From Dehalococcoidales bacterium (lineage in GTDB: Bacteria; Chloroflexota; Dehalococcoidia; Dehalococcoidales; UBA5760): a stretch of 46,872 nt of DNA. Location: assembly GCA_021161775.1 (NCBI GenBank), contig JAGGZY010000050.1, positions 1 through 46,872 of the forward strand, written 5' to 3'. A program made the position numbers and the translations under genes. Shown one piece after another: positions 9,769 to 26,558 of the stretch. Every line of letters starts with the position of its first letter. Positions within the stretch are counted from its first letter, which is position 1. The notes beneath the pieces are model-generated. The model was not told the DNA's origin. It worked only from the letters and a program-made list of their open reading frames with translations, and did no database searches.

Positions 9769-9981
9769 TCAGCTAAATACGGCGGTGATTACTGCCTCTT
9801 TCGGATTATGCTCATCAAAGAAGGTAACCACCAGCTTCCTCCCCGGGGTCATTGCCGACTCCGGCAGGTTTCTGGCTACAGTAATATCCTCCAGATAAGC
9901 CTGGTGGCTGCCAGTTAACTGAATGGTTGCCTTATAATCAGTAGCGTTGAATCTCTTCAGTGTCGCTTTGCTTAGTCTCAT
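9769..9981 (-). CDS. Small phage-cluster protein, last gene of the structural operon
   Basis: GGAGG RBS; beta-rich 70 aa protein coupled to the upstream gene. Confidence 0.65.
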   Translation of the reverse strand: MRLSKATLKRFNATDYKATIQLTGSHQAYLEDITVARNLPESAMTPGRKLVVTFFDEHNPKEAVITAVFS

Positions 9982-11996
9982 CTGACCCTCCTTATACTCT
10001 TCCCAGGGCTAGCCTCGCCTCGTATTTTCCACGGCGGGGGTGATAAACCAAATCCAGCCCGAGGACCCTCCTTATTCTCACCATTAAGCCCGGCGCGGCT
10101 ATCGGTCAGTTCAATAACATCGTATAGCTGCTGACCGCAGTTGGGTGGGGTGTGGATAATACCCCCGCTGGAGGCTATCTCGGCTTGTCTTAGATATACC
10201 TCTCCTCGTTGCTGAGCTTGGGACACGCCGTTGATATTCCGGTCCTCAAGCTGGCGTAATCTATCATAGAGTCGGTTTATCTCATCCCAAGAGAAGGAGT
10301 CAACTATCATCGGCTTATCGTTTACCGGGTCATAGCCCTCGACCTGAACCCGATTAAGCTCCCAGCCCCCCTTTAGGTATCTCCCTTCAACTATGGGGTG
10401 GGATGAGCCATAGGAGTAAACCGAGTTGTCATTGGGGAGGGGGTTTACCACATAGGCTTTACTGCCCTCAATAAATATTACATCGGGGACGAAGGAGAGC
10501 AGCTTGCTGATGACAGCGTCTCCTCGGCTCCCCGGGGGAATGGTAAAATCGGGATAGTAGCTATCCAGAACCGATGACTGGGATTTAATCTCCAGCTTCA
10601 GTCCACATCTTGCCAGCACTAGAGCCAGGATGTCCTTGACACTCATCTCATCGGAGTCTTTATTCCAGCGGAACTGACAGCGGGCGCGCCAGTGTTTAAT
10701 CAGGCTCCAGCCGTCGGAGGCATATAGAATCAGACTGGCGATACCCCCGGCGCTGGTATGCTCACTGGCATCAATCCAGAACTCGGCGCCCGGGCTAACC
10801 TCGTTGCCCCCGGAGGTAACATAGCCGGGGCTGAACTGAAGCTCACTGCCGAGAGCTAGAGCTTTAAGGGAGCCTTCTCCCGGTGAGGAGTACTGCCCGT
10901 CGCTGTTATTTAGCTCAACCGTCAGCCAGCTCTCTCTTTGGCTGAGCTCCTGTCTTACCCTTAATATATCGGCGGTTAGATCGAGGCTCTCGGCGGTGAG
11001 CTTTGCTCTCCATACCCCGCTGGGGTTGGCTAGCCAGTCGTAGTTACCGTGATAGGCGATGGCTAGCCCGTACTCACTGGATAGGTTAAATGGCACCGGC
11101 TCATGCCACCGATTATCAGCGAAATCGGTGTCGGGGATAGTATATGACCAGAAGGGGCGGCTATAGGCTTCGGTGCCGCTAAATTTCTCGATAAAGAAAC
11201 CACGGTAGACATCGGGTTTAGCCAGAAAGGCGTGATGATACTCAAAGCCGCTGTCCGACGGTGCTGAAGCCAGCGGAGTTAGCTCTGACCAACTACCGGT
11301 GGGGCTCGCTCCACCATCACCATAGATGAGGGACCATAGTTTGAAGTTGCCGGCGGTGTCCTTACCGGTAATAAACAGATTCCAGTCGCCATCATAGACG
11401 GTTGCCACCCCGGACAGGTCACCGGTGGTCTTATCCCAGGCGATTTTATTCTGCCAGCTACCGTTTAGATACTGCTTAACATAGAGAGTGCTTTGGTCAG
11501 CGAAAAATAGCGCCAGAGAGCCGTTGGGCTGGTAGGCGGCGGTGATACCATAGATAGCTGATGTCGGGGAATAGTCGATAAGCTCGGGGGACCCCCAGCT
11601 AGCGCCGTAGTCGGTGCTTTTTGACTGGTAAATCTGCCGGGTTCTTTTTATCCAGAAGATGCTGACCTCAGCCCCCAGCGAGCAGCTGGTGGTAGTGACG
11701 ACATCATACTGATTGTGATATACCCACTGGCTAAAGTCTGCCCCCGGGCCGGGGTTAACCACCCGTTGTCGATAAAGCTTTCGGGAGTCGGCAGGTGGGG
11801 TAACCCTTACCCTGATGAGAGAGCCATCACCGGGGATAGTCAGGCTATGAAAATAGTCTGCCTCAGTGCCGGCATACAGCCTTTCCCAGTTTAAGCGGGT
11901 AATATTAGCCAGCCGACTTTTGGCTTTGATATTGACATAGGGGGTATAACTGGCTTCCTGTTGGGCGGTGAGTAGTGATGGTGATAGGCTTCTCAA
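9978..11996 (-). CDS. Large tail/spike-like protein (Asp-box propeller N-terminus, hub-like C-terminus); probable frameshift near 10075
   Basis: STDYGASW Asp-box; position in virion operon; an alternative frame gives RRVLGLDLVYHPRRGKYEARLALGRV with stop at 9992-9994. Confidence 0.6.
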   Translation of the reverse strand: MRSLSPSLLTAQQEASYTPYVNIKAKSRLANITRLNWERLYAGTEADYFHSLTIPGDGSLIRVRVTPPADSRKLYRQRVVNPGPGADFSQWVYHNQYDVVTTTSCSLGAEVSIFWIKRTRQIYQSKSTDYGASWGSPELIDYSPTSAIYGITAAYQPNGSLALFFADQSTLYVKQYLNGSWQNKIAWDKTTGDLSGVATVYDGDWNLFITGKDTAGNFKLWSLIYGDGGASPTGSWSELTPLASAPSDSGFEYHHAFLAKPDVYRGFFIEKFSGTEAYSRPFWSYTIPDTDFADNRWHEPVPFNLSSEYGLAIAYHGNYDWLANPSGVWRAKLTAESLDLTADILRVRQELSQRESWLTVELNNSDGQYSSPGEGSLKALALGSELQFSPGYVTSGGNEVSPGAEFWIDASEHTSAGGIASLILYASDGWSLIKHWRARCQFRWNKDSDEMSVKDILALVLARCGLKLEIKSQSSVLDSYYPDFTIPPGSRGDAVISKLLSFVPDVIFIEGSKAYVVNPLPNDNSVYSYGSSHPIVEGRYLKGGWELNRVQVEGYDPVNDKPMIVDSFSWDEINRLYDRLRQLEDRNINGVSQAQQRGEVYLRQAEIASSGGIIHTPPNCGQQLYDVIELTDSRAGLNGENKEGPRAGFGLSPPPWKIRGEASPGKSIRRVR

Positions 11997-12009
11997 ATTA
12001 AACCTCCTT

Positions 12010-12204
12010 TCAGCTCCCTGTCTGCCCTGGCACCCAGGGCGTTCCCCAGAAAAGATGTCCTAGCAGGATACCGAGGGCAACGCTTAGCATAATCCAGATA
12101 AGTGGCTGACGGTGGTAGCAGTCCCGGATAATATAGGTCCAGGGGCGGCCGCCTACCCGGGACCACAGGGCTTTGTACAATTGAGAGAGTCGAGCTCGCT
12201 TCAT
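12010..12204 (-). CDS. Small membrane protein (holin-like)
   Basis: Single TM segment (LIWIMLSVALGILLGHLFW); TAATG overlap with the upstream ORF. Confidence 0.55.
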   Translation of the reverse strand: MKRARLSQLYKALWSRVGGRPWTYIIRDCYHRQPLIWIMLSVALGILLGHLFWGTPWVPGQTGS

Positions 12205-12395
12205 TACTTCTCCTTAAACCGTTTAATTGCCCTCTCGCCGAAGTATTCGATAATGACGGCACTGATTAGCCAGCTAAGCGGTTGGGGAATTACTACCCCC
12301 TTCATTACACAAAAGCCATAAATGATGCATCCCCAGACGATAATAAATGGCCTGACGATGCTTTTTACAAACGTTATTCGCTCGTTTAGGGTCAA
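12204..12395 (-). CDS. Two-TM holin-like protein
   Basis: 63 aa, two hydrophobic helices, basic C-terminus YFGERAIKRFKEK. Confidence 0.6.
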   Translation of the reverse strand: MTLNERITFVKSIVRPFIIVWGCIIYGFCVMKGVVIPQPLSWLISAVIIEYFGERAIKRFKEK

Positions 12396-12413
12396 TTTTC
12401 CCGCCTCTCCTGG

Positions 12414-13004
12414 TTAATCGATAAACAGCTGATGATCTCTGAGCTGTTGCCTTCGTCCCAACCGCTTCAGGCTATCCCTGAAGGCGGTGAGTCTTTCTTC
12501 CCCCCAGCTTCGGTACTGGTCGGCGGTCATCTCTCCCCCGACATTTACCCGGTTAATGCTGGCGACAGCCTGGCTGATAACCGCGTAGCCGCAGGCCCCG
12601 GTAACTACTAAATCCTCATACTTAGTGGGGACAGTAGAACTGTTAGTGTCAATAGTGTGGAGCACTCCGTAGTAGATACGGCAGTTAGTGCCGTTGGGGG
12701 TATCGCCACTGATTATAACCAGGACATCCCCCCAGATAGAGAAACGCTGGTACTGGGTGGGGAAGGCACCCAGGGGGTATTCTACGGCTTGAACCATAAT
12801 CCGCTCAGTCAGACTGGAGATATCCACGGCTCGGGAGGTGCTTATGGTGGGTAGTATAGCCTCGGCGGGTAGGGGGGTTCTCTCCGATAGTTCCCTCAAG
12901 GCGTGGTTAATATGTCGGGTTAGTTCATCATCTGACCACTGGTAGGGGGTAATCTCATCCTTAAGGTTGTTCCTGACCATGGTTATCATCTCCGATAGAT
13001 TCAC
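12414..13004 (-). CDS. Phage head-tail adaptor-like protein
   Basis: N-terminus VRNNLKD...WSDDELTRHINHALRELS resembles podovirus-type adaptors; downstream of capsid. Confidence 0.65.
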   Translation of the reverse strand: MNLSEMITMVRNNLKDEITPYQWSDDELTRHINHALRELSERTPLPAEAILPTISTSRAVDISSLTERIMVQAVEYPLGAFPTQYQRFSIWGDVLVIISGDTPNGTNCRIYYGVLHTIDTNSSTVPTKYEDLVVTGACGYAVISQAVASINRVNVGGEMTADQYRSWGEERLTAFRDSLKRLGRRQQLRDHQLFID

Positions 13005-14062
13005 TGCTTTACCTCCTTAGACGGCATTCCGGTTTTCCCGGTGCCTTTGGGCAGTTTCATATCGCTGGTGCCGGCTCGGGCGGCGATTTTAGCCCTGAGT
13101 CGGTCTAAACCCAGGCTGGCTTCACCAGCCACGATTAGGCTTAGTAGGGCAGCGATAGCCTCACTCCTGTAACTGCTGTCGGCGACCAGGGAGAATCGGG
13201 ATAAACTGGCTATATCCAGGCTTGAACCAACATCAATAAGGGGTATTTCTCGGCTTAATAGCTCCTCAATATCGCTACCAGCTTCGGCTAAGGTAATACC
13301 CCGGTTCTTCAAACTCTCTACCCCCGCCTTTAGAGGAATGTTGCCCGTAGTCCAGAGAGCCCCGTGAATTATGCCGTCATTATGATTATCTGTCTCATCA
13401 TAGGCAGTAGAACCCGAGCCTTCATTCATTAACCATAAGCCTACCGTATTAGCATCCTTAGGGAATTGCCTACCCACTCCATTATTCCAGTTAGCGGCTA
13501 TTTCAGCGGGGGTTCTGGGCGTGTCAGAGATACGAACCTGAGAAATGAGGCCGTTGACCGTATAGCCAGTGCTCCCAATATACCAATGTCCAGAATGTAT
13601 CAAGTCGGTGTTATCTCTCTCCACAGTAGATTTTAGAAATCCATTTAGATACAACCTTGCTTTATCGTGGTCGTAAGTAGATGCAAAATACACCCATTGG
13701 TTCTTGAGTAAATCATTCTCATAAATTCTTGGACGAGGCGCACTCCCTTGTGTAGTCGTTATCTTCCATTCTAAGTCGGTGTTATATTTAGAGTAGAATA
13801 AGACATTTCTATCGTCATTTGTCCAAACAAAACGCATATAATCCTTTGACATTTCTGATGGCAAATAGGGAATTTTTACCCACACCTCAATCGTAATCGC
13901 ATCAGTGATGTCCAAAGAGGGGTTATTGCCACAATCTATATAGTCATCTACCCCATCAAAGCTAAGGGCAGAACCATAGCCTTCTCTAACTATGAGGTCT
14001 CGGTCGAGAATTGCCTCTATCCCCTCACTTCCGCTATCGCTGGTTTGTATATCAGTACTCAT
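13001..14062 (-). CDS. LamG/concanavalin-like domain virion protein
   Basis: ALSFDGVDDYIDCG, ITIEVWVK, WVYFASTYD, LYLNG, GLISQVRIS, VGLWLMNEGSG. Confidence 0.85.
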   Translation of the reverse strand: MSTDIQTSDSGSEGIEAILDRDLIVREGYGSALSFDGVDDYIDCGNNPSLDITDAITIEVWVKIPYLPSEMSKDYMRFVWTNDDRNVLFYSKYNTDLEWKITTTQGSAPRPRIYENDLLKNQWVYFASTYDHDKARLYLNGFLKSTVERDNTDLIHSGHWYIGSTGYTVNGLISQVRISDTPRTPAEIAANWNNGVGRQFPKDANTVGLWLMNEGSGSTAYDETDNHNDGIIHGALWTTGNIPLKAGVESLKNRGITLAEAGSDIEELLSREIPLIDVGSSLDIASLSRFSLVADSSYRSEAIAALLSLIVAGEASLGLDRLRAKIAARAGTSDMKLPKGTGKTGMPSKEVKQ

Positions 14063-14080
14063 CGTTTTCTTCCCTCGTCC

Positions 14081-14106
14081 CCGGGGGTAGTCAAAGCTAC
14101 CCCCGG
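14081..14106. other. Perfect 10-bp hairpin inside the virion operon
   Basis: CCGGGGGTAG-TCAAAG-CTACCCCCGG. Confidence 0.6.
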
Positions 14107-14115
14107 TTAGGATTC

Positions 14116-14631
14116 TCAGCTTAGGGTTATGGATACCTCCAAGGTCCAGGTACCTGAGGTTTTGGTGCCCAAATTCTCTACCTTACGGTTGAGACAGATA
14201 GAGCTAGTTGATTGTTTGACCACCCATTCGTTCCAGGTATAGTTGGCGTCATCTGAGCCAAAGCTGGCTTTAAAGGTTGCCTGCTGTGATGTTGATGTGG
14301 GGTAGTTGGCCTCCATACCCTTATAGGTTTTGTTAGTTGCGGCTTGCAGGTCGGTTTGGGTAGCCTCGGCGGCGGTGCTACTGTCACCGACCCCGATTTG
14401 AGCGTGGGGGTTATCGTAGATATGGTCGGCCCCAGAGACTACCCCGGTAATAAGGTCCCACATCTCGTCAATTCCGGAGTTTAGCAGGCAGTTGTGTTCC
14501 CCCTCTATCACCTCATAGGGCTCAAACTGCTGGTGAAACTCGCCCTCCCGGCTCTGGTAAGGCTTAATGTCCTCGTGATATTTGCTGAGCCGATAGTGGC
14601 AATACCAGTTGGCGTGTTCTCTATTTTCCAT
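14116..14631 (-). CDS. Phage structural protein (tail-collar/fibre N-terminal-like)
   Basis: IGVGDSSTAAEATQTDLQ...FGSDDANYTWNEW...LNRKV; directly after capsid. Confidence 0.55.
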   Translation of the reverse strand: MENREHANWYCHYRLSKYHEDIKPYQSREGEFHQQFEPYEVIEGEHNCLLNSGIDEMWDLITGVVSGADHIYDNPHAQIGVGDSSTAAEATQTDLQAATNKTYKGMEANYPTSTSQQATFKASFGSDDANYTWNEWVVKQSTSSICLNRKVENLGTKTSGTWTLEVSITLS

Positions 14632-14652
14632 TCTTTCATCTCCTGTGTCGAG

Positions 14653-15576
14653 TTAATCGGTAATCCCGATTAGGGCGGCTGCCTTAATCGCGGAGAATAG
14701 GGCCAGTGAGCAATACCACTTAATTCGAGTTCGGGAGGCGTCCTTGGTTTCCAGTGAGCCGATAGGCTCTACCTGCAGGTATCCTGGACTGGTTAAGCCA
14801 CAGAGGGCTCCTTCTCCGAACTGGACGGCATAAATGGTGGAGCAACTGCCGCCGGTGGTAGCTGTCTCTAGGCTGGAATCGAGGGTATGGGTATCCAGAA
14901 TCCAGTCATTGACTCCGACGGGAATACTGTCCCATAACTGGACAAAGTTACCGAAGCTGTCTTTTTCGGTTACCATCATTCCTGAGCCTGAGGCTCGGAC
15001 GAGGTTATTAATCTTCCTCCGGGTGCGGCGGCTCATCAGGAGTATATCGGGTTTACCCCCCTTTACGGCGTCAATAAGCTCATCTAGCTTATCCAGGGTG
15101 AGAGTAGCTCCGGTAGCCCCCATCGCGATTACCTGACTGCTTGCGGTGGTGGTATCAATTAGCTTCCTAAGGCCATCAAACTGCTTGGCATTGACGGCGG
15201 GGTCTCCATAGATAACCGTCTCCTCGAATTTGTCCTTGAGTGCCTTTGCCTTAAGTTCAATGACCGCCGCTTCCAGGTCCTGGATATTAGAGCGGGTTGC
15301 CTTGAGGAAATTATCAATATCGGCGTCACCGCCCATAATCTTTAGGGTAGTGGTTACCTGTTCAAAGGTTGGGGTTGACTCGTTCCAGGGGTCGCCAACA
15401 TCGTAGAAATCAATCGAGGGCAGGGTGTTCTCCTGGTTATAGGTTAATCCATTACCCACAATCTCAATAAAGGGGAGTTTCTGCAGTATCGGTGAGTTCT
15501 TGATGATGGTTTCCACGACTCCCTGAAGGAGCATATTATTAGATAGTTTGGATGCCTCGTTTAGTGTTAGTGCCAT
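14653..15576 (-). CDS. Major capsid protein (HK97-fold)
   Basis: ETIIKNSPILQKLPFIE...IYGD...FDGL...LDELIDAV...RIKWYCSLA; follows portal and scaffold. Confidence 0.85.
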   Translation of the reverse strand: MALTLNEASKLSNNMLLQGVVETIIKNSPILQKLPFIEIVGNGLTYNQENTLPSIDFYDVGDPWNESTPTFEQVTTTLKIMGGDADIDNFLKATRSNIQDLEAAVIELKAKALKDKFEETVIYGDPAVNAKQFDGLRKLIDTTTASSQVIAMGATGATLTLDKLDELIDAVKGGKPDILLMSRRTRRKINNLVRASGSGMMVTEKDSFGNFVQLWDSIPVGVNDWILDTHTLDSSLETATTGGSCSTIYAVQFGEGALCGLTSPGYLQVEPIGSLETKDASRTRIKWYCSLALFSAIKAAALIGITD

Positions 15577-16047
15577 TTATTTATCACCTCCTATGGCGTA
15601 TCGAATCTTCTGTCGTGGTGACAGGGATGAGTGGTCAAGTGGTGTTCGTGGTGGAGCCCCGGCAGGAATCCGGGTAGCTTGAATTTCAGTCTCCAGGCTC
15701 TGTCTCACTTGGCTAATCATGCCTTTAGCCTGCCTCAGTGACTCGTTGATAGCCGGGATGCTGTCGCCGGTGATAAGCTCCGCTGGCACCTCAGGGTTGG
15801 TCTGCATTACCATTGTTCGGTAGTTGACTAACGCCTCGCCTAGGGAATTATCTGCCGTCTTGAGTTTTTCGGTTGACTCGGTGAGCCTCTGTTCCAACTC
15901 AGTAATGTGGCTATTGGCTTGGGTCAGCTCCTCATTCTGCTGAGCTACCTGGCCCTCAAGCTTGGCAATTTGGGATGCCAGGCTCTCTTCAGTCTCGGTA
16001 TTTTCAGGAACTGGGTCTTGATGTTGCTTTATCTTGTCATCGGTCAA
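15577..16047 (-). CDS. Capsid scaffolding protein
   Basis: Coiled-coil, acidic N-terminus, C-terminal IPAGAPPR...LSPRQKI; lies between portal and capsid. Confidence 0.7.
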   Translation of the reverse strand: MTDDKIKQHQDPVPENTETEESLASQIAKLEGQVAQQNEELTQANSHITELEQRLTESTEKLKTADNSLGEALVNYRTMVMQTNPEVPAELITGDSIPAINESLRQAKGMISQVRQSLETEIQATRIPAGAPPRTPLDHSSLSPRQKIRYAIGGDK

Positions 16048-16085: not shown

Positions 16086-17453
16086 CTAGGATTGGTTAGC
16101 TCTCCCTCTCGCTTCATTCCGAGCCGGTTTGGTATTAAGCTCCTTGTTCATGCTGAGGATAATCTGGCGTTCCTCAAGCCAGCGGTTAAATTCTGCCTCA
16201 GGGTCTTTAACCCCGACCTCATCCATAGCGCGTCGTCTGGAGTGGACACCGTTCTGAATCAAGGTCTGCTCGTTGGCTACTAGCCGCTCCTTGTCCTGGG
16301 GCAGGAGCGGTCCCCAGACTACTCGCAGATGGTTATTACCGAAGTTCTCATGATGGTATTTTTCGAGGAGTTTGAGGATTAGCCGGTTTCGCTGGTTGTA
16401 GGCGGCACTGCGGATAAGACGCTTCCGTTTTACCTTCTGTAGCAGGGGCTGAAGCTCAAGCTCAAGGGCTACCCCGGACAGGTTCTTCTCGGTACCACCG
16501 AAAGCAGAGCGGGGTGACTCTGAGATGTCATGCAGGGTCCGATAGAGCAGGTTGAGGTAATCGATATGTAGCCCGACACCACCCCCTTGAAGCAGGTCTA
16601 GCAGATAGGCTTTAGCATCCTCAGGTATATTCCAGACTGCCCCTGGCTTAACCGCGATATCCTCAGATTCCTCGATGTTCTCCAGTACGGCGATAGGGTT
16701 ACCCGATAGCTCTAGTATTCTTGATAGCTGGCTCATTGCCCGGTTAAACTCACGCTGGGGCGGTATTAGCTGGCGCAAATCCGACATTCCCCAGAATTTT
16801 TTAGGCTCCCTCAGATTAGGATAGATAATAAACGGGATAAATCCGTAGGGATTAGGCTTACTGGTTACCAGATTGTTATCTATCCAGAGCTCAAACCCCT
16901 CGGTGGTCCATAACTCGGTAATCTCAGCGGTTTTCCCCTTGGGGGTTACCTTATACAGGATTTCGGTTTCGTCTGAGGTCAGCCGATATTTAGAGGCGAC
17001 CCGCCATAGTCTGGAGGTGTCGTCCCCCACCCACCAGGTGTGGATGCCCTGGATATCGGGGGCAGTAATCCTGACCCGTTTGGTCGCCGCGTCCCAGATA
17101 ACCTTAAAGCAGGCATCTCCCAGGAGGGCACAGTCAATCTCGGTCTCAAAATCAAGTTGTTCTAGATTGTTGTCTTCGTATACCTGGTATAATGCCTGCT
17201 CAGCCCGCTGCGCCCTGGCTCTAGCCTCATCGGAGTCATCGATGGGGTCAACAGCAAAGGTTACTCCTGACATCAGATATGAGGTAAGCTTATCGATAAT
17301 TACCTTGGCATAGTTAAAGACCAGGCGTTTCTCACCTCGCCGGGGATAACCCTCCCACTGCTGACCGTGGTAGAAATCAAGCAGTTCCTGATAACCCTTG
17401 AGCCGACTCAGGTCGTGGTGATTTAGCTGTGCTGGAGTAAAACCTTCATTCAT
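16086..17453 (-). CDS. Phage portal protein (SPP1 Gp6-like)
   Basis: FYHGQQW, NYAKVIIDK, NPYGFIPFI, WGMSDL, NLSGVAL motifs. Confidence 0.9.
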   Translation of the reverse strand: MNEGFTPAQLNHHDLSRLKGYQELLDFYHGQQWEGYPRRGEKRLVFNYAKVIIDKLTSYLMSGVTFAVDPIDDSDEARARAQRAEQALYQVYEDNNLEQLDFETEIDCALLGDACFKVIWDAATKRVRITAPDIQGIHTWWVGDDTSRLWRVASKYRLTSDETEILYKVTPKGKTAEITELWTTEGFELWIDNNLVTSKPNPYGFIPFIIYPNLREPKKFWGMSDLRQLIPPQREFNRAMSQLSRILELSGNPIAVLENIEESEDIAVKPGAVWNIPEDAKAYLLDLLQGGGVGLHIDYLNLLYRTLHDISESPRSAFGGTEKNLSGVALELELQPLLQKVKRKRLIRSAAYNQRNRLILKLLEKYHHENFGNNHLRVVWGPLLPQDKERLVANEQTLIQNGVHSRRRAMDEVGVKDPEAEFNRWLEERQIILSMNKELNTKPARNEARGRANQS

Positions 17454-17733
17454 GGCTAACCTTCTTTAATGCCCTCTGCACAGTTCGTTGACTAACGCCA
17501 AACAGTAGGGCTAGCTCCTTTATTTTTCTTCCCTTGACATATAGCTCTAATATTTCCCTATCCCGCAGCTTTCTAAGGTAGCGTTGCTTACCTCCGGGCT
17601 CGTCATAGATACACCTCTCGAAAGGGCAGTTGAGACAGGAATTGGCGAACTCACAACCGTTATCATGGTAGTGGCAATACTCTGGCGGTAGGTCTAGTTC
17701 ATCGGAGCTCACTATCAAATCCTTAGTTCTCAT
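17446..17733 (-). CDS. Cys-rich plus HTH regulator heading the virion operon (start revised from 17802)
   Basis: C-x6-C-x5-CxxC-x4-C cluster, then RDREILEL...KELALLFGVSQRTVQRAL HTH; GGTGA RBS before ATG 17733. Confidence 0.75.
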   Translation of the reverse strand: MRTKDLIVSSDELDLPPEYCHYHDNGCEFANSCLNCPFERCIYDEPGGKQRYLRKLRDREILELYVKGRKIKELALLFGVSQRTVQRALKKVSHE

Positions 17734-17768
17734 ATCTATCTCACCCGAAGGGATGGTCAGGATGTTAG

Positions 17769-17786
17769 AATAGCACATATGTTCTA
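17769..17786 (-). promoter_or_regulatory. LexA-like box over extended -10 promoter of the virion operon
   Basis: Minus strand TAGAAC-ATAT-GTGCTATT followed by TGcTATTCT -10; 17/18 identical to 26541-26558. Confidence 0.72.
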
Positions 17787-17837
17787 ATATAATCAATAGC
17801 ATTTTGTCATCATCTTAGGGGATGGCTATCGGCATTC

Positions 17838-18217: not shown

Positions 18218-18445
18218 ATGGCACCTTTGGAGGATTATCTTAATGTGATAGAGGCGGCTCGCCGTCTTTCGGTTCATCCTGAGACCGTAAAACGATTATG
18301 TCGGCAGGGAGACCTAAAGGCAACTAAAATCCACAATACCTGGCTTATCCGGCGGACTGTTCTCAAGGATTTCGCGGTTAGCTATGTTCCTCGACGTGGT
18401 GCTAGAAAGAAATTAATAAAGGCAGAAAGACAAAGAGAAGATTAA
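18218..18445 (+). CDS. HTH_17 (excisionase/MerR-like) DNA-binding protein
   Basis: YLNVIEAARRLSVHPETVKRLCRQGDLKATKIHNTWLI; TTGACA at 18147. Confidence 0.85.
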   Translation: MAPLEDYLNVIEAARRLSVHPETVKRLCRQGDLKATKIHNTWLIRRTVLKDFAVSYVPRRGARKKLIKAERQRED

Positions 18446-18490: not shown

Positions 18491-20035
18491 GTGAAAAATA
18501 GTAGAATCCTTGGTAGTTTAGCGACTGTTGGTAGCCTAGTGTTGTTGATATCCTTCATGCTGCCTACCCCGGCTTTAGCGGCGCCGGTAGTTACCCTGTC
18601 TCCCAGTTCCGGCTCACCGGGAACCAGGATTACTGTAACCGGGACAAACTTCGAATCCTATCTGAATGATACTGTTTCTATCTTCTTTGGCGGTGAGAAA
18701 ATCGATACTCTGGTGGTTACTGAGGGCGGGGCTTTCACCACCAGTTTTGATGTTCCGGATAATGTCTCGCCGGGCAAGGTTTATGTTACTGTTAGGGACG
18801 AGCGGAGTAGTCAGCTGGGTGATAGAATACCCTTTGTTGTTCTGGAGCCTAAAATTGAGTTAAGCCCAGCTTATGGTATCGTGGGCACTACGGTAAATGT
18901 CAGTGGCAAGGGCTTTTACGCTGGGGAGGCGGTAGCCCTTCATTACTATCGGGGTAGTAGTCGGGCTAGTCTAGGTACGGAGATAGCCAGTTCCTCCGGG
19001 GAGTTTAGTGGTACCTTCGTCATTCCTGAAAGCATGGTGGGGGAGCATAAAATTATGGCTAAGGACTCCCGGAGTGGCTTGGCGGAGGCTGAGTTTAAAG
19101 TGGTCCCTTCGCTTACCATCGGCTCATCATCAGGAGCTATTGGGGATAAGATAATGATGAGCGGTGCCGGTTTTGGTAATGAGGATGTCGGCATTTATCT
19201 TAATGATGTTCCGGTGGCAATAGGCACTACTGACCAGTATGGAGGCTTTAAGGCTACCTTTAATATCCCGGTGATGGAGTCGGGTATTTATGATATTAAG
19301 GCTGAGGACAATGATCAAAACATAGCCAGGGTAAAATTCACCGTAGTCGCCCAGGCTAGCCTTAGCCAGTCCACCGGTGCGGTTGGTATGCCGCTCACCG
19401 TTAGTGGTATTGGGTTCGCCGGGGCTAGGTCAATTACGGTTATCTATGATGACAGAGATGTAGCTACAGCAGTAACCGATAATAATGGGGTCTTTCAGAC
19501 TACTTTTAATGTTCCAGCTAGCCTTAGTGGTGGTCATATTATAACTATTAGTGACGGGGTGAGTACCATAAAGTGTTCCTTCACTATGGAAGCCGAGCCG
19601 CCGCCGGTGGTGGAATTACTATTACCCGAAGATGGAACCAAAATCAAAGCGAGTAAAGAAGGGATTAATTTTGACTGGGAGGATGTTAGCGACCCCAGTG
19701 GGGTAACTTATACCCTTCAGGTGGCAAATAAAGGCAGTTTCTCTTCATCTTCTATCGTGCTGGAAGAGGCCGGGCTTACTGATTCTGAGTTCAGTGTTGC
19801 TGAGGAGGGGGGGCTGGGTCCCAGCAGTAAAGAAGCCCCCCATTACTGGAGGGTAAGGGCTACCGATGGTGCCTCTAATGAGGGTGATTGGACAGAGGCA
19901 AGGTCTTTCTACATTAGCTCTTCGTTCACCCTACCGGGTAAGGCTAAGAATGCGTTAATCGGGGTTGGTGTCGGGGCAGCGGTTTTCTTTGGTTTCTGGT
20001 TGGGACGAAGAACTGCCTATTCCCGACGGGTATAA
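18491..20035 (+). CDS. IPT/TIG Ig-like repeat surface protein with FN3-like domain and C-terminal TM anchor
   Basis: Signal peptide ALA|A; repeats SPSSG..GT.ITV.G..F...G.F...F.VP; HYWRVRATD; TM helix plus basic tail. Confidence 0.8.
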   Translation: MKNSRILGSLATVGSLVLLISFMLPTPALAAPVVTLSPSSGSPGTRITVTGTNFESYLNDTVSIFFGGEKIDTLVVTEGGAFTTSFDVPDNVSPGKVYVTVRDERSSQLGDRIPFVVLEPKIELSPAYGIVGTTVNVSGKGFYAGEAVALHYYRGSSRASLGTEIASSSGEFSGTFVIPESMVGEHKIMAKDSRSGLAEAEFKVVPSLTIGSSSGAIGDKIMMSGAGFGNEDVGIYLNDVPVAIGTTDQYGGFKATFNIPVMESGIYDIKAEDNDQNIARVKFTVVAQASLSQSTGAVGMPLTVSGIGFAGARSITVIYDDRDVATAVTDNNGVFQTTFNVPASLSGGHIITISDGVSTIKCSFTMEAEPPPVVELLLPEDGTKIKASKEGINFDWEDVSDPSGVTYTLQVANKGSFSSSSIVLEEAGLTDSEFSVAEEGGLGPSSKEAPHYWRVRATDGASNEGDWTEARSFYISSSFTLPGKAKNALIGVGVGAAVFFGFWLGRRTAYSRRV

Positions 20036-20154
20036 TGGTGTAAGTCGATAGGTAAATCGGTTACAATGATAGGAAAGACCCCCTGTAAAAATAGTTTATT
20101 TTCCTTTATAATGTAATCTCGTAGGCTAAGGAAATAGAGAAGGCAGGTTTATAA

Positions 20155-21843
20155 GTGAAGCGTACTAAGATTTTTCAGATACTGACCCTGACAGCGGCTC
20201 TGTCGCTCTTTATTATGGCTATTCCGGCGGCACCGGCACTGGCTGCGGAGAGTATTAATCTCTCCCCGAGTAGTGGTGAGATTGATGAGAGTGTTACTAT
20301 TACTGGCGCTGGTTTCAATGATACTAAAATAGCTGCCACTATCTATTTCTCCAGTAATGATGCTGATGTCGGTGATGAGATTGATGATGAGGTTACTGCC
20401 TATGAGCTGATAAGAACCAGGACAATAAGTCCTAGTGGGACAATAAGCTATACCTTTCATGTGCCCTCAGCGCTTACCGACGGTGATGATGAGGAAGATG
20501 TAATCGGTGGTGATTACTTTGTCTATGTTACCTATGAGGGGGAGGATGAGATACAGGCAGTTGAAGACTTCACCGTAAGGGGTATTACCCTGAGTGATGA
20601 AGAGGGCCCGGTGGGTAGTGAGGTGGGTATCACCGCGATTGGCTTTACCAAGAATAAGTACTTTGATATTGAGTATGCTGGTGATGACCTGGATAGTGAT
20701 TATATTGTGCACAGCGAAGGACAGACCAGCCGCTATGATGGGAAGACCGACCGGCATGGTGAGATTGCTGAAGGGGATTGTATTATCAGCATTCCCGAGA
20801 GCGTTGCTGGTGAGCATACCATAGTAGTTAAGGATAGGTCTAACAAGGAGGCTTCGGCTATCTTTTTTGTTATCCCACAGGTGACTACGGATGTTACCTC
20901 AGGGGTAGTTGGTGATAGTATTGCGATTACCGGTACCGGCTTCGGAAGCAGTTTAGAGGTGGCGATTACCTTTAATAATGTTGCTGTAGCTAGCGATGAG
21001 ACTGATAGCAACGGTGGTTTCAGTACCATCTTTACCGTGCCTGATGTATCAGATGGTAGCTATAATATTAAGGCGAAGGATGAGGATAATAATCATGCTA
21101 CGGTTGAATTTACCGTAGAGACTAGTATTACTGCCAGTATCAGCCCGGCTACCTCTCAGGCGTCGCCGGGGCATGTTGGCTCTCATATAATGGTTACCGG
21201 AACCGGGTTTGGGGACTGGGAGTCAGTTACTATCAAGTATGATAATATCGCTATCGCTACGGCTATAGTGGATGCTAACGGAGCGATTAATACTACCTTT
21301 GATATCCCGGCTAGTCAGGCGGGTAATCATGTTATTTCTATTGCTGATGCTGATGGCACCAATATAGTAACCGCCGGCTCCTTCGTTATGGAGTCAGCGG
21401 CGCCAGCTGTACCGGAGCTGCTATCGCCGGAGGATGATGGTCAGGCTGAGGCACTGGCATCCTTTGATTGGGGGAGTGTTAGTGACCCCAGTGGGGTAAC
21501 TTATACCCTTCAGGTGGCAAATAAAGACAGCTTCTCCTCGTCTTCTATTCTCCTTGAGAAGACCGGGCTTGCCGATTCTGAGTACACTATCACCAGGGAG
21601 GCCGATGCCTTGGAGCCAACTGAGGAGAATAAGCCTTATTACTGGAGGGTGAAGGCTATCGATGGCACCTCTAGCGAGAGTGATTGGTCCACTGCCGGCT
21701 CATTTTATATTGCGACAGTAGCTCCGGGTCACGGACTGCCGGGTAAGTCTAGTAAGCTGATCCATCTGTGGTGGGGATTAGGGGCGACCGCCGCTGGTTT
21801 CATTGGCTATTATGTCGGCAAAAAAAGGAGCTATTACTATTAA
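20155..21843 (+). CDS. IPT/TIG Ig-like repeat surface protein, paralog 2 (acidic)
   Basis: Same architecture as 18491..20035; YYWRVKAID; C-terminal TM helix. Confidence 0.8.
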   Translation: MKRTKIFQILTLTAALSLFIMAIPAAPALAAESINLSPSSGEIDESVTITGAGFNDTKIAATIYFSSNDADVGDEIDDEVTAYELIRTRTISPSGTISYTFHVPSALTDGDDEEDVIGGDYFVYVTYEGEDEIQAVEDFTVRGITLSDEEGPVGSEVGITAIGFTKNKYFDIEYAGDDLDSDYIVHSEGQTSRYDGKTDRHGEIAEGDCIISIPESVAGEHTIVVKDRSNKEASAIFFVIPQVTTDVTSGVVGDSIAITGTGFGSSLEVAITFNNVAVASDETDSNGGFSTIFTVPDVSDGSYNIKAKDEDNNHATVEFTVETSITASISPATSQASPGHVGSHIMVTGTGFGDWESVTIKYDNIAIATAIVDANGAINTTFDIPASQAGNHVISIADADGTNIVTAGSFVMESAAPAVPELLSPEDDGQAEALASFDWGSVSDPSGVTYTLQVANKDSFSSSSILLEKTGLADSEYTITREADALEPTEENKPYYWRVKAIDGTSSESDWSTAGSFYIATVAPGHGLPGKSSKLIHLWWGLGATAAGFIGYYVGKKRSYYY

Positions 21844-21912
21844 TTAGCTTCTCCGGGCGCTCCGTGGTGAGTGTGGGGTGGTAGTTTTAACCAGCAGTGC
21901 CAAGGCTTATTA
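21805..21912 (+). repeat. Degenerate direct repeat, left copy (IPT gene end plus relic of terL end)
   Basis: ggctattatgtcggc...taattagctt...cgtggtgagt...tttaaccagcagtgcca recurs at 24713-24819. Confidence 0.85.
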
Positions 21913-21982
21913 TCTGGTTGGGGTGATGCTGTCTCTTCTTGAAAATTTGTCTCCTCGGCATTTTATTTCCCAGCAAAGGGCG

Positions 21983-22088: not shown

Positions 22089-24062
22089 TTGAACTTGGAA
22101 AAGCCGACAACTATCACCTCTATGATGGCAGAGGGAAAAGTCATCAACCCACCCGAGAAGCTCAGCAAAGAGGCCTACATCAAGAGCATGGCCGAATACA
22201 AGGAGATCTACCAACAGTCCATTGCTGACCCCGAAGCGTTCTGGGGGAAAATGGCGGAGCAGCTGGACTGGTTCAAGAAATGGGACAGGGTAGCGGTGGA
22301 CAATTTCAAAGAGGGCAAGCACGAGTGGTTCGTGGGTGGCAAGCTCAATGTCAGCTACAACTGCCTGGACAGGCACCTCAATAGCTGGAGAAAAAACAAG
22401 GCGGCGCTGGTCTGGGAGGGAGACATCGGCGACAGCAAGACCCTCACTTACCAGGAGCTGTATCATCAGGTAAGTAAATTCGCTAATGTCCTCAAAAAGC
22501 ATGGGGTAAAGAAGGGTGACAGAGTTACTGTCTATCTACCTATGATTCTGGAGCTGCCCATCGCTATGCTAGCCTGTGCCCGTATCGGTGCCATTCACAA
22601 CGTCGTTTTCGGTGGCTTTAGTGCCGATGCTCTACGAGACAGAATGCTGGACTGCGACTCCACGTTTCTCATATGCTCCGATGGTTACTATCGCAGCGGA
22701 AAGGTAATCAAGAGTAAAGTTAATGCCGACCAGGCACTTAAGAACTGCCCTAAGGTAAAGGATGTCATTGTGGTAAGGCGGGCAGGCAACAGCATAGATA
22801 TAAAGGAGGGGCGTGATCACTGGTGGCATGATGAGATAAATGATGAGGACATCGCGCCGACCTGTGAACCGGAGGCTATGGATTCCGAGGACCCGCTTTT
22901 CATCCTGTACACCAGCGGCAGCACCGGAAAACCCAAGGGGGTGCTCCATACTCAAGCCGGCTATCTCCTCTATGCCTATCAGACAACCAAGTGGATATTT
23001 GATATAAAGGATGACGACACTTACTGGTGCACCGCAGACATTGGCTGGGTGACTGGCCACAGCTACATCGTGTACGGCCCTCTAGCTCTGGGAACAACTA
23101 GCCTGATGTTCGAGGGTGTGCCCAGCTACCCCCACCCCGACAGATTCTGGGAAATCGTGGAGAAATATAGGGTCAACATCTTCTACACTGCTCCTACTGC
23201 CATCCGAGCCATAATGAGAGAGGGGGATAGGTGGCCGAACAAGCGTGACCTGAGCAGTCTGCGTATTCTGGGAACAGTCGGTGAGCCAATCAACCCTGAT
23301 GTCTGGATGTGGTATTACAGCGTAATCGGGCATAATAATTGCCCGGTTGTCGATACCTGGTGGCAGACAGAGACTGGCGGTATTGTAATTACTCCGCTGC
23401 CTGGTGCTGGGCCCCTTAAACCGGGGTCAGCCTCATTGCCCTTCCCTGGCATCTTGCCGGCGGTGCTGAGAGAAAACGGTACTGAAGCCGACACTAACGA
23501 GGGCGGTTACCTGGTAATCAAGAAGCCCTGGCCCGGATTGATGCGGGGAGTCTACGGTGATCCGAAGAGGTTTAAAGAAACCTATTTCACCCGGTTCCCC
23601 GGCGTATATACCGCCGGAGATGGAGCTAGAGTAGATGAAGATGGCTATTACTGGTTGATGGGCCGCATAGACGATGTTATCAATGTCTCGGGCCACCGTA
23701 TAGGAACCGCTGAGGTTGAGAGTGCTCTGGTATCCCATGAACTGGTGGCAGAGGCTGCCGTTGTCGGTATGCCTCACGACATCAAGGGGCAGGGAATATA
23801 TGCCTTCGTTACCCTGAAGACCGGCGTGGAGAAGAATGATGCCCTAAAGAAGGAGCTGGTTACTCATGTCCGCAAGGAGATTGGCCCCATAGCTGCCCCA
23901 GATAAGATTCAATTTGCTGACGGCCTACCCAAGACCAGAAGTGGCAAGATTATGAGACGGATACTAACCAAGATTGCCGCTGGTAAGACCAGCGAGATGG
24001 GCGATACCAGCACCCTGGCTGACCCATCAGTGGTTACCACTCTGGTGGAGGGGAGTCGATAA
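22089..24062 (+). CDS. acs: Acetyl-CoA synthetase (AMP-forming)
   Basis: [45 protein letters not shown]. Confidence 0.97.
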
Positions 24063-24117
24063 AAAACGGTAGCCCCCGGTAATAATTCACTAATCAATAA
24101 ATGGAGGTTATTTCAGC

Positions 24118-24681
24118 GTGTCAAAAGATGATGTAGTATGGGCAAACCCAGGTGCTCTAGGATTAGCTGGCTTCGGTTTTAATACTATTCTGTTGAATAT
24201 ACATAATGTTGGTTTGATGCCCAACACTATGCCCCTGATTTGGGGGTTCTTCTGGGGGGGGATGGCTCAGGTTATCGCTGGAATAATCGATGCTCGGCGA
24301 GGAGACACCTTTGGCTTGACTGCATTCACATCCTACGGTGTTTTCTGGATAGGTCTTGCCTTCGCTTTCTTCCTGCAATGGAGGGGTCTGGTCACCATTG
24401 ATAATGCCAGCATGGCCTGGACGATGGTAGTCTGGGGCATATTCACCGGCTACATGACAGCTGGCACTGTGAAAATATCCAAGATACATATAATTATATT
24501 TGCTTCGCTAACACTACTCTTTGGTCTGCTGGCAGCACACTTCTTTGGTGTTTTACCAGCCCATGTTGCCGGAGGAGTGGGGATATTCGTCGGTGGTTCA
24601 GCAGTTTATGCCTCAGCAGCAATAATCATGAACGACAAATACGGACGCTGGGTACTCCCTATCGGGCTGGCTAAGAAGTAG
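24118..24681 (+). CDS. satP: Acetate uptake transporter (GPR1/FUN34/YaaH family)
   Basis: ANPGALGLAGF signature, GGMAQ, TAFTSYGVFW; about 6 TM helices. Confidence 0.9.
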   Translation: MSKDDVVWANPGALGLAGFGFNTILLNIHNVGLMPNTMPLIWGFFWGGMAQVIAGIIDARRGDTFGLTAFTSYGVFWIGLAFAFFLQWRGLVTIDNASMAWTMVVWGIFTGYMTAGTVKISKIHIIIFASLTLLFGLLAAHFFGVLPAHVAGGVGIFVGGSAVYASAAIIMNDKYGRWVLPIGLAKK

Positions 24682-24712
24682 CAATAACCGGCTGGAAACC
24701 GTTGTTATCAGA

Positions 24713-24819
24713 GGCTATTATGTCGGCGAAAAGGAAGCTAATTAATAGTAATTAGCTTCCTTTGGCGTTTCGTGGTGAGTATTGGGTGGCGGCTTTAACC
24801 AGCAGTGCCAGGCTCATCA
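24713..24819 (+). repeat. Degenerate direct repeat, right copy (relic of IPT gene end plus terL end)
   Basis: Aligns with 21805-21912 at roughly 80% by eye. Confidence 0.85.
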
Positions 24820-26122
24820 GGAAATCGTCGTGTCCCTGGATAGGGTCAACACCAAAGCTCATTGTCTGGTTGGGGTGGTACTGGCTTTTCGCCCTCTCCA
24901 TCTCCCGCCAGAACTCCTGCTCCTCTGCTGAGCTATCCCCGGCGTACATTTTCAGTCGGCCCGAGTTAATCGCTGCCAGCAGGTTAAAACCGAGGGCTGA
25001 TTTTGACTGCGCTGTGAAGGTAAACGGCAACACCTTTGAACCCAGGGCTTGCCTGAGGAACGAGCTTACCGGTTGGCCCATCCCGGTAGCATCAACTACT
25101 ATCTTGCGACAGTGCCAGATATTTTTCAGAATGTCAATCAGCTGGGGATAAAGCTCGCTATATTTCTTCCCTGTCCACCAGTAGTGCTCCACAATATTAA
25201 TCGTGGGTTGCTTAATCAGCTCACTACAGCTGGAAAAGTTCAGTTCCCCGATAGTAACTACCGTAGCATCCCGACTGGATTGGGCTTTTCCTTCCTCAGT
25301 CTCCCCGGCAAGGTCAATACCGGCGAGGTAAATCTTGCCTGATTCAGGCTGGTGTTGCCGGGGATGCCGTCCGCTTAGCTGAGCCAGCTGCTGGTGGTTG
25401 AGGTAACCCCCGCCGCTATGGACAGGTAACAGTCGGTATTGGGTGAGGAAAAGGGGGTGGTTCTCCCCCAGCCGCTGACGCTCGGCATTAACATAACTCA
25501 GGTAATCAGGGTTATATTTGGCTACTGCCTGCCAGTCATAGCGGAAGTGACGCCTAATGCCGTCTTTTCTCTCCAGTTCCAGATTGGAATTCTTTATCTC
25601 TTCCAGCAAGGTTGAGCTATCCCAGGTGGTTCCGTAGTGAACGGTGGTAACATTGCTGGTAGCTCCCATCGGCTTGAACTCTTTATTATATTTTTCCCGA
25701 CTGACGTCCTGGGACTCGTCTATCTCGAGCAGTATATGTGCGGTGTTGCCGACTACATTGGCGGACTTATCTGCCGATAGAAAGATAGCCCTGGTATTTC
25801 CTAGCCTGATGATATAGCCCAGCTCGCTTACCCATAGTCCGTTAAAACCGGCGTCATTGAGTCGGTCCTTGAGCCTCATTATGGAGATAACGGTCTGTGG
25901 CTTAAAGGTGGGGGAGCACTTGATTAGATTTTGGGGCTTGGTCATATACAGGGTAAGAAGTAGCAGTTCCAGCTGAGCCGAGAGCTCATTCTTGCCCCCC
26001 TGTCGGGCAATCTCTACGGAGAAGGTGAGCCCCTTCCTGCTGAAGATACTGTCGAGTATCGCCAGCGCCACCTCTTTTTGATAGGGCCTGAGTCGGTTGA
26101 TTGAAGATGAGGGGTTAGTCAC
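24752..26122 (-). CDS. terL: Terminase large subunit (probable GTG start 26122; ORF open to 26179)
   Basis: LRPYQ, Walker A ARQGGKNE, Walker B LLEIDE, nuclease GIDLAG / VDATGMG / HDDFLMSLAL. Confidence 0.9.
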   Translation of the reverse strand: MTNPSSSINRLRPYQKEVALAILDSIFSRKGLTFSVEIARQGGKNELSAQLELLLLTLYMTKPQNLIKCSPTFKPQTVISIMRLKDRLNDAGFNGLWVSELGYIIRLGNTRAIFLSADKSANVVGNTAHILLEIDESQDVSREKYNKEFKPMGATSNVTTVHYGTTWDSSTLLEEIKNSNLELERKDGIRRHFRYDWQAVAKYNPDYLSYVNAERQRLGENHPLFLTQYRLLPVHSGGGYLNHQQLAQLSGRHPRQHQPESGKIYLAGIDLAGETEEGKAQSSRDATVVTIGELNFSSCSELIKQPTINIVEHYWWTGKKYSELYPQLIDILKNIWHCRKIVVDATGMGQPVSSFLRQALGSKVLPFTFTAQSKSALGFNLLAAINSGRLKMYAGDSSAEEQEFWREMERAKSQYHPNQTMSFGVDPIQGHDDFLMSLALLVKAATQYSPRNAKGS

Positions 26123-26132
26123 TATTTGCCTG

Positions 26133-26501
26133 CTATTTGATAATATTAGTCCCGATACCGAGCCCCAGTGGCAGGGCAATATCCCTGAGGACGTTACCTA
26201 CTGCCTCCTTGAGCCCCTTCTTATCGTTCTTACTGATGTTGTACCTCGTCCCCACCAGTCGGGACAGGGTAGTGATTGCCTGCATAATGAGATTGATGTT
26301 ATCCGGGTCGTGGGTGATGAGGGACTTTATCTTGACCCTCAGCAGGGCAATTTCATCATCAATACCCTCTACCTTGGTGGCTAACTCAAAGTCTCGTTGT
26401 TCGGTTTCGTCAAGGACCTTGGAGTAAAAGCCGTGCTTTCTGGCGTACTGATTACCCTTGGGAGCGCCCCGTTTATTCTCGGTTTTAATGGTTGACTTCA
26501 T
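26133..26501 (-). CDS. terS: Terminase small subunit-like protein (start revised from 26540)
   Basis: GAPKGNQYARKHGFYS motif; DEIALLRVKI; directly upstream of terL; AGGAG before ATG 26501. Confidence 0.72.
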   Translation of the reverse strand: MKSTIKTENKRGAPKGNQYARKHGFYSKVLDETEQRDFELATKVEGIDDEIALLRVKIKSLITHDPDNINLIMQAITTLSRLVGTRYNISKNDKKGLKEAVGNVLRDIALPLGLGIGTNIIK

Positions 26502-26540
26502 CTTGGTGCTGACTCCTGAACTGGCTAGCTGGAATTTCAT

Positions 26541-26558
26541 AATAGCACAAATGTTCTA
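26541..26558 (-). promoter_or_regulatory. LexA-like box over extended -10 promoter of terS-terL
   Basis: Minus strand TAGAAC-ATTT-GTGCTATT with TGcTATTAT -10. Confidence 0.72.

Follow-up and report, generated by a model that had tools for sequence, protein, structure and literature searches.

Gene transfer agents (GTAs) are known from a handful of independent domestications of phage genes. RcGTA, the type found in Rhodobacter capsulatus and other Alphaproteobacteria, is encoded by a phage-derived cluster of structural and packaging genes that is fixed in its hosts and has no replication or integration genes; it occurs class- or order-wide, is inherited mostly vertically and is kept under purifying selection. 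The cluster can be split over several loci, the activator dedicated to it contains a helix-turn-helix (HTH) like that of sigma region 4, and its surface proteins are variable and lectin-like. The capsid-forming phage-inducible chromosomal islands (cf-PICIs) carry their own terminase genes terS and terL, portal, major capsid protein (MCP) and connector genes but no tail, with a small AlpA-type HTH gene nearby, and they are mobile through an integrase and a replication module. PBSX, a defective prophage of Bacillus, resides in the chromosome and does not propagate; DNA damage induces it to form particles with host DNA inside. Its genes include those of a complete contractile tail and of lysis, and it is limited to a narrow group. 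We know of no GTA in the Chloroflexota, and of no conjugation or competence system in the class Dehalococcoidia. Here we describe a phage-derived head and packaging cluster in a window, i.e. the whole 46,872-nt stretch of DNA that we analysed, on contig C15 of a 934-kb Dehalococcoidales genome (GCA_021161775.1, 98.9% complete); all positions are those of its forward strand. Our analysis favours, with some confidence, the reading that this cluster is an ancient phage-derived head and packaging module, resident in the Dehalococcoidia chromosome and maintained there by selection, a viriform of the GTA kind.

Phage-derived capsid and packaging genes are located in a cellular chromosome here, with host genes on both sides. 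We scanned the open reading frames (ORFs) from 2626 to 33502 and identified the genes through profile searches against Pfam and PHROGs (Table 1). The head operon covers 9769-17802 on the minus strand, with a regulator gene as the first and the gene of a 70-aa protein as the last in transcription order, and terS and terL form a second operon. Nine genes make up the core, i.e. those of terS, terL, the Cys/HTH regulator, portal, scaffold, MCP, adaptor, a 672-aa protein and the 70-aa protein. The phage-type genes sum to about 12 kb and the whole cluster covers about 17 kb. A first-pass annotation, made from the letters of this DNA, had proposed a head operon and a terS-terL operon with intact catalytic motifs and without integrase, att (attachment) site, replication, tape-measure, tail-tube or endolysin genes, and our searches agree with it on each of these points. 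The terL motifs, which we take to be Walker A, Walker B and the acidic residues of the nuclease, are at least 95% conserved across 29 homologues. None of the scanned ORFs matches an integrase, resolvase, primase/replication, tail-tube, tape-measure or endolysin family, and the same profile searches gave no prohead protease, head completion, head-tail connector, distal tail or baseplate gene, nor any toxin or lytic gene in the cluster. No att-like direct repeats were found to bracket the cluster. The Pfam integrase and resolvase profiles have no match on the window contig, with the matches of PF00589 confined to other contigs and no match at all for PF00239. The element has no replication, integration or lysogeny-control genes, so it cannot transmit itself.

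The cluster is encoded across the whole class rather than in a few strains. We detected the MCP in 20 of the 41 relatives and in 13 of their 27 genera, with 69-85% identity across families; for terL the count was 25, and for the 672-aa protein 29, of the same relatives. We then tallied the order and the class over genomes that are at least 90% complete. MCP is encoded in 119 of the 154 Dehalococcoidales genomes (100 of the 131 high-quality ones; 65 of 79 genera), nearly always as a single full-length open frame in the positive genomes, and in 183 of the 301 Dehalococcoidia genomes (109 of 171 genera), a tally that takes in one unpublished genome, G371. Its presence goes by family, with 20/21, 19/21 and 10/10 genomes in positive families and 0/21, 0/11 and 0/7 in negative ones. 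Other classes of the Chloroflexota give matches in 20 of about 265 genomes, at weaker scores. At least 508 species-representative genomes encode a relative according to a pattern scan. The MCP of the complete Dehalococcoidales genome G062 is identical, letter for letter, to the NCBI entry 'major capsid protein [Dehalogenimonas etheniformans]' of a cultured species. We also found at least 449 short contigs with this MCP that are classed as viral in IMG/VR; the best 80 are all 4-12 kb long and none of them is a phage genome. They are most likely pieces of host chromosome, which would explain hundreds of short 'viral' contigs as host fragments scored as viral.

The chromosomal setting of the cluster is conserved. 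We searched every window protein by tblastn against 11 relatives from seven families, and compared 80 further related loci separately. The whole locus is kept in seven of the 11 relatives and at least one host flank is common to nine of them. On one side the flank consists of a YqeY-like gene and an XRE-type HTH (HTH_3) gene; the other side has the genes of a CT398-type zinc-ribbon protein, RNase H and RNase P RNA. Among the four relatives without the whole locus, the stretch or contig stops before terL in G031 and G025, and deletions have occurred in G001 and G023. Genomes of other orders (G435, G338, G313, G415) show, with host insertions, the ancestral-looking arrangement terS-terL-regulator-portal-...-scaffold-MCP-adaptor-672-70. 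The packaging and the head modules are separate in four complete genomes that belong to other orders, with distances of 11 kb (G192), 66 kb (G212), 172 kb (G198) and about 2 Mb (G246). The portal gene of G062 adjoins MCP and its terL is about 1.3 Mb away. A prophage must be contiguous, and a phage genome could not be packaged from modules that lie so far apart. G192 also encodes four full-length terL paralogues at four places, 56-59% identical to the terL of the window, with a single portal and a single MCP match.

The cluster is under purifying selection and has co-evolved with its host lineage over a long term. We calculated the ratio of nonsynonymous to synonymous substitution rates (dN/dS) as the median of pairwise NG86 (Nei-Gojobori) estimates over pairs with at least 80% nucleotide identity, which are not independent of each other. 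The ratio is 0.105 for MCP (468 pairs), 0.099 for portal (65 pairs), 0.149 for the adaptor (53 pairs), 0.20 for the 672-aa protein (12 pairs), 0.23 for the scaffold (22 pairs), 0.10 for terS (11 pairs) and 0.08 for the 70-aa protein (49 pairs), compared to 0.05-0.09 for the host neighbour genes by the same method. These values, 0.08-0.23 overall, and the genome counts above speak against a strain-specific, sporadic or neutrally decaying cluster. The portal+MCP and RpoB trees of 21 genomes have 7 of 18 bipartitions in common, when label shuffles give 0.2 on average and at most 2 in 2000 shuffles. Their patristic distances correlate with r 0.77, a value reached by none of 5000 permutations, and the median rate ratio of portal+MCP to RpoB is 0.99, i.e. 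the two change equally slowly. The identity between G000 and G005, for example, is 79% for RpoB and 84% for portal+MCP. The inheritance of portal+MCP is mostly vertical. The first-pass annotation had proposed a phage remnant maintained by its host, and the synteny, the comparison of the gene trees with RpoB and the dN/dS ratios all agree with this. That genomes of down to 0.93 Mb keep a class-wide system with such RpoB-like conservation implies that its benefit is strong.

The two operons plausibly respond to the same signal, as the first-pass annotation had supposed, since they have a conserved operator and promoter in common. A composite element lies upstream of both the regulator-portal operon and terS; it consists of GACAAA, a -35 and then the palindrome TAGAACAT[A/T]TGTGCTA, which overlaps an extended -10. 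In the 934-kb genome the perfect palindrome occurs exactly twice, once at each of these promoters (Table 1). A box of the form AGAAC-N4-GT[G/T]CT precedes the regulator gene in 70 of 83 loci and terS in 19 of 24, compared to 0-4 occurrences for eight other genes. In 72 of 93 sites a GACAAA precedes the box by 22-23 nt, with a background of 64/5000. The consensus around the box has a TTGAC -35 after GACAAA and, overlapping the right half of the box, an extended -10 of the form TGnTAnnAT. The promoter of the host lexA carries a similar box, TAGAACTAATGTTCG. The right half of the operator is GTGC in 68 of 70 regulator sites and 18 of 19 terS sites, whereas the box of lexA itself has GTTC; the extended -10 may account for the conserved G. 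We did not adopt membership of the general SOS regulon, given these different right halves and the exact operator occurring only twice in the genome. Overall, the domesticated particle system is older and wider than the first-pass annotation had proposed, being class-wide and having a defined shared promoter.

Mobile elements have inserted into the capsid gene itself in several Dehalococcoidales genomes. In at least five genomes MCP is interrupted after codon 47, within the invariant GNGLTYN|QE, by an inserted element, e.g. the 7.8-kb insert at L109:7497-15310 in G088; L112, L114, L118 and L119 are further examples. A large serine recombinase (Resolvase + Recombinase + Zn_ribbon_recom) adjoins the N-terminal MCP fragment in all five cases that include that flank, and the homologues are 39-45% identical. 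An old family of mobile elements appears to use the MCP gene as its dedicated attachment site, and excision could restore the gene. If the cluster is a GTA of Dehalococcoidia, its capsid gene would have been stable enough to turn into the integration site of these elements, which may be on/off switches of particle production.

The 672-aa protein might form a short adsorption device, judging from its place in the operon. Its family has 2263 representatives at 50% identity in an exhaustive profile search, and the homologues are named 'hypothetical protein' throughout among the matches listed. The protein itself has no Pfam or PHROG match, and Pfam scans of 66 homologues gave nothing consistent. 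Residues 111-144 hold an Asp-box/BNR motif, and a PDB profile search with the 66 homologues gave a sialidase Asp-box match only (E 0.013). Thirteen of the 66 weakly match phrog_1887, a 'tail protein' family, with a best E of 8e-4. Nine longer relatives were scanned, with LamG in three, DUF2341 in two and PKD in one, a gain of domains that is typical of exposed binding proteins. The particle had been called short-tailed in the first-pass annotation; only gene position and the weak phrog_1887 matches are in line with this, whereas a direct profile comparison is not: a 'podovirus nozzle' has no sequence support, with an hhalign probability of 0.09 for the 672-aa profile against the SU10 gene after the adaptor, and an adaptor-adaptor BLASTP E of 0.26. 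The adaptor of the cluster has no tblastn match among 50,697 phage records. The slot between MCP and adaptor spans 0 to 3.2 kb across loci and often holds LamG proteins; the 171-aa protein of this slot is a possible capsid decoration. After the capsid gene and this variable slot, the adaptor, 672-aa and 70-aa proteins are the only core proteins left, and a short, lectin-decorated adsorption device is a reasonable inference. The 70-aa gene is also present in other orders by tblastn, and its product matched no family in the Pfam and PHROG searches. A small transmembrane (TM) ORF is located between the adaptor and 672-aa genes in only 39 of 77 loci, so these membrane ORFs do not belong to the core, and the holin-only release suggested earlier is doubtful at best. 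Of the two holin-like ORFs then reported, both places do hold a small membrane ORF, with the second being the 64-aa ORF with one TM helix; the 89-aa ORF at 11993-12262 that overlaps it looks spurious.

We propose the following model for the cluster. A dimeric repressor, either the host LexA or a dedicated factor, would sit on the palindrome, and an activator, perhaps the Cys/HTH protein, would act at GACAAA. Upon induction, terS and terL would load DNA into portal-bearing capsids; the adaptor, 672-aa and 70-aa proteins would then seal the portal and make the short adsorption device, with lineage-variable LamG-type proteins on the particle surface. The cargo would most likely be host DNA, carried between cells. 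Dehalococcoidia thus described would probably build virus-like, DNA-carrying particles of their own. That the cluster works as a gene transfer agent is a more tentative proposal, which we put at slightly less than an even chance. We are similarly reserved about the fuller version, in which Dehalococcoidia would own a GTA that arose from an independent and ancient domestication of a phage head, as a tail-less or stub-tailed DNA particle under a LexA-box-like switch, serving as a main route of gene exchange.

A number of findings weigh against a resident module kept by selection. The module is known from genes alone. Of 16 high-quality relatives, nine have an MCP match, and terL and the 672-aa protein were each found in 14, with some of the terL and 672-aa matches weak or fragmentary. 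About a quarter of the high-quality Dehalococcoidales genomes have no MCP match, and the three g10 genomes, one with the Dehalococcoides mccartyi terL, are without MCP. The deletion in G001 runs from the middle of the 672-aa gene to the portal, so that adaptor, MCP and scaffold are gone and the portal is intact; G023 is without scaffold, MCP and adaptor. Among the split-locus genomes, a search for the operator that allowed at most one mismatch gave no site in G212, G198 or G246 and a dubious one in G192. No tail, ejection or lysis gene is recognisable in the cluster, which leaves the delivery of DNA unexplained, and the 672-aa protein has no tblastn match in the phage records searched above. 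The nearest phage MCPs, at most 41.6% identical, are from siphophages with 42-59 kb genomes, and hence the roughly 17-kb cluster of the Dehalococcoidales could fit entirely into one head; the split-locus genomes are the only cases which guarantee that the system cannot fit one head. The approximately unbiased (AU) test rejects the RpoB topology for portal+MCP with p about 5e-5, for 21, 18 and 15 taxa. Dropping G062, G004 and G313 raises the common bipartitions from 7/15 to 9/12, with the AU test still rejecting. The tests thus reject strict co-speciation, even without the outgroups and the three most discordant genomes. The incongruence reflects some exchange among relatives, or an error in the single-gene reference tree.

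The most serious alternative is that the particle is domesticated but has another job, e.g. mobilising specific elements like genomic islands or the carriers of the serine recombinase, killing competitors like a PBSX-type bacteriocin, or acting as an anti-phage decoy. The evidence for domestication would be identical in this case, the recombinase family that targets codon 47 of MCP ties the cluster closely to mobile DNA, the LexA-like operator is of the kind we associate with damage-induced bacteriocins and tailocins, and fast-evolving TIG surface proteins are conserved next door. We nevertheless regard it as rather unlikely: there is no sign of a specific pac site or cargo in the cluster, the conservation of terS is similar to that of the other genes, the particle genes are not accompanied by a toxin or lytic gene, and the inserted elements disrupt the capsid gene instead of using it.

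Much less probable, in our view, is a mobile satellite or small temperate phage, similar to a cf-PICI, that has one conserved integration site and spreads with the tail of a helper. Head genes without tail genes are what cf-PICIs have, an excisionase/AlpA-type HTH_17 gene is at hand, IMG/VR classes the short contigs as viral, and the AU incongruence with RpoB could be read as mobility. Such a satellite is hard to reconcile with an integrase, resolvase, primase, replication gene and att-like repeats not being found in or next to the cluster, with flanks of host genes in conserved order and host genes inserted inside the cluster, with gaps of 66 kb to 2 Mb between the modules in complete genomes, and with distances that track those of RpoB. 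A dead prophage remnant, drifting to loss and conserved only through the close kinship of the sampled genomes, is very improbable. The deletions around MCP in G001 and G023, the MCP-less quarter of genomes and the interrupted MCP genes would be expected of it; but intact ORFs are seen across families with an RpoB identity of only about 79% or below, which are no near-identical strains, and the low dN/dS ratios, the catalytic motifs of terL kept in 29 sequences and the conserved promoters do not fit decay. Two further candidates were dropped. An intact temperate prophage does not agree with only about 12 kb of phage-type genes, host insertions and split loci, and an encapsulin nanocompartment does not agree with a portal and a terminase that are present and conserved.

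Table 1. Genes and promoters of the cluster and its inner neighbours in the window. Fractions are numbers of the 80 related loci with a match; bits are given with the family cut-off.
Feature	Positions	Strand	Evidence and remarks
70-aa conserved small protein	9769..9981	-	last gene of head operon; 54/80 (tblastn)
672-aa core protein, candidate adsorption/short-tail protein	9978..11996	-	63/80; conserved part is residues 1-643
64-aa ORF, accessory	12010..12204	-	one hydrophobic helix (1 TM), from translation
63-aa ORF, accessory, holin-like by shape only	12204..12395	-	two hydrophobic helices; homologues 16/80
Head-tail adaptor	12414..13004	-	PF24175 SU10_adaptor E 1.6e-7, 32.4 bits vs cut-off 27; phrog_399; 64/80
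LamG/concanavalin-like protein of variable MCP-adaptor slot	13001..14062	-	PF13385 E 6e-21; 13/80, all partial
171-aa protein of variable slot	14116..14631	-	phrog_23653 E 2.5e-41 (family without assigned function); 38/80
Major capsid protein (MCP), HK97-type	14653..15576	-	phrog_212 E 3.8e-72; PF20911, PF17236, PF05065
Coiled-coil scaffolding protein	15577..16047	-	coiled-coil matches only; position between portal and MCP; 80/80
Portal protein, SPP1-type	16086..17453	-	PF05133 E 7e-29; phrog_64 E 1.5e-43
Cys-rich + HTH regulator, late-activator-like	17446..17733	-	PF08281 sigma-70 region 4 HTH E 2e-6; Mor 6e-4; phrog_836 late transcriptional activator 2e-6
Promoter 1	17767..17808	-	GACAAA 17803-17808; -35 TTGATT 17791-17796; operator TAGAACATATGTGCTA 17771-17786; -10 TATTCT
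HTH_17 (excisionase/AlpA-type) small DNA-binding protein	18218..18445	+	PF12728 E 3e-11; divergent from head operon; 27/80
Two paralogous TIG-domain surface proteins	18491..21843	+	PF01833; signal peptide + C-terminal anchor
Acs (acetyl-CoA synthetase) and SatP (acetate channel) genes	22089-24681		lineage-specific insertion
Terminase large subunit, terL	24752..26179	-	PF17289 25.4 bits vs cut-off 22.6; phrog_5909 6e-7; phage terminases at most 32% identical
Terminase small subunit, terS	26133..26501	-	phrog_1889 E 1e-7; phrog_509 1.5e-5
Promoter 2	26539..26589	-	GACAAA 26584-26589 and 26574-26579; operator TAGAACATTTGTGCTA 26543-26558; -10 TATTAT 26539-26544

The regulator and terS genes probably start at the ATG codons at 17733 and 26501, respectively. 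The ORFs listed at the first pass, which extend to 17802 and 26540, do contain real genes, and the shorter starts are likely since the longer ORFs would span their own promoters. ARAGORN predicted an 89-nt tRNA-Met at 16117-16205 (+), inside the 3' end of portal, which has no Rfam support at the gathering threshold and is probably a false positive. A bacterial RNase P RNA is encoded at 27819-28170 (+) with 308 bits, and the 100-aa ORF on the opposite strand at 27818-28120 is spurious.

The genes between the two operons are of two different kinds, which refines the earlier statement that host genes interleave with the cluster. The TIG genes are present between the operons in each of the nine relatives with a stretch that extends this far, and in 43 of the 80 further loci, with dN/dS of 0.36-0.48 (1-2 pairs), and the TIG proteins are probably conserved neighbours rather than parts of a virion. 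The statement holds for Acs and SatP. These match none of the 80 loci, and direct repeats of about 82% identity at 21791-21938 and 24699-24890, in the 3' ends of TIG2 and terL, bracket the 2.9-kb Acs+SatP segment, so this is a recent lineage-specific insertion. The old TIG2/terL junction was duplicated by this insertion.

A 90-nt repeat occurs at 4407-4496, 5737-5826 and 17838-17927, the second and third copies being 87% and 68% identical to the first. It precedes a LuxR-type response-regulator gene, a SipW-like/camelysin-like operon and a unit of small membrane ORF, HTH_17 and TIG genes, respectively. It may be a shared regulatory region that links the TIG proteins to a regulon of the host cell surface and not to the particle genes. 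The small ORF of this unit, at 17937-18034 (+), lies within the divergent intergenic region, right after the repeat and before HTH_17, has a good ribosome-binding site and encodes 32 aa with one hydrophobic helix. The region 5964-9755 next to the head operon encodes a signal-peptidase-like protein, a camelysin/TasA-family protein (Peptidase_M73), an NHL-repeat protein and a 368-aa paralogue, an operon resembling those of TasA fibres, and contains a 300-nt repeat (7050-7349 / 9305-9604). The last three genes of this operon match none of the 80 related loci, i.e. they are a lineage-specific insertion beside the cluster.

The locus of G023 (L026 6798-13167) retains terS, terL, the regulator and two-thirds of the portal, which is truncated and lies beside half of the 672-aa gene, as well as the 70-aa gene and the terS operator. 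Its terL is identical, letter for letter, to a 'hypothetical protein' of Dehalococcoides mccartyi, in a cluster of 33 members at 90% identity. Judged by these matches, the locus is a conserved remnant in a well-studied species.

Our full-text literature searches found no description of this cluster. The 'IME1' elements of Dehalococcoides are a different, filamentous-type element according to the accessible part of their description (10.64898/2026.09.15.751708). The cluster would offer a mechanism for horizontal transfer in Dehalococcoidia, and a GTA here, if real, would be a main gene-exchange route in a class of mostly small-genome anaerobes. The model is directly testable, with a cultured Dehalogenimonas carrying the cluster and the common operator providing a handle on its induction.

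Compared to the known systems, the cluster resembles the descriptions of RcGTA in general plan: both are phage-derived, fixed in their hosts, mostly vertical in inheritance and sometimes split, with a sigma region-4-like HTH regulator and variable lectin-like proteins. It differs from RcGTA in its phylum, its nine-gene core and the LexA-box-like operator in its promoter. It is not a cluster of the RcGTA type (Rhodogtaviriformidae) either, in that our profile searches found no siphovirus-type head-tail set; without protease, head completion, tail tube, tape measure and baseplate genes, the particle would not be siphovirus-like. With the cf-PICIs it has in common terS, terL, portal, MCP and connector genes without a tail and an AlpA-type HTH gene nearby; unlike them, it has a fixed place among host genes and modules up to 2 Mb apart, and the integrase, replication module and att sites of a cf-PICI were not found in the cluster. 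Its LexA-box-like operator fits damage induction as in PBSX, whereas the cluster has no tail module and is class-wide. The closest phages in gene content are those with phrog_212-type capsids, e.g. Streptomyces phage Rowa and Clostridium phage vB_CtyS-FA67, with a homologous MCP and the same order terS-terL-portal-scaffold-MCP-adaptor, and the adaptor of the cluster is a member of the SU10-type family of Pfam (SU10_adaptor). Unlike these replicating phages of 42-59 kb with protease, neck, tail and lysis genes, the cluster corresponds to the head and packaging part of such a genome plus two proteins without any phage match.

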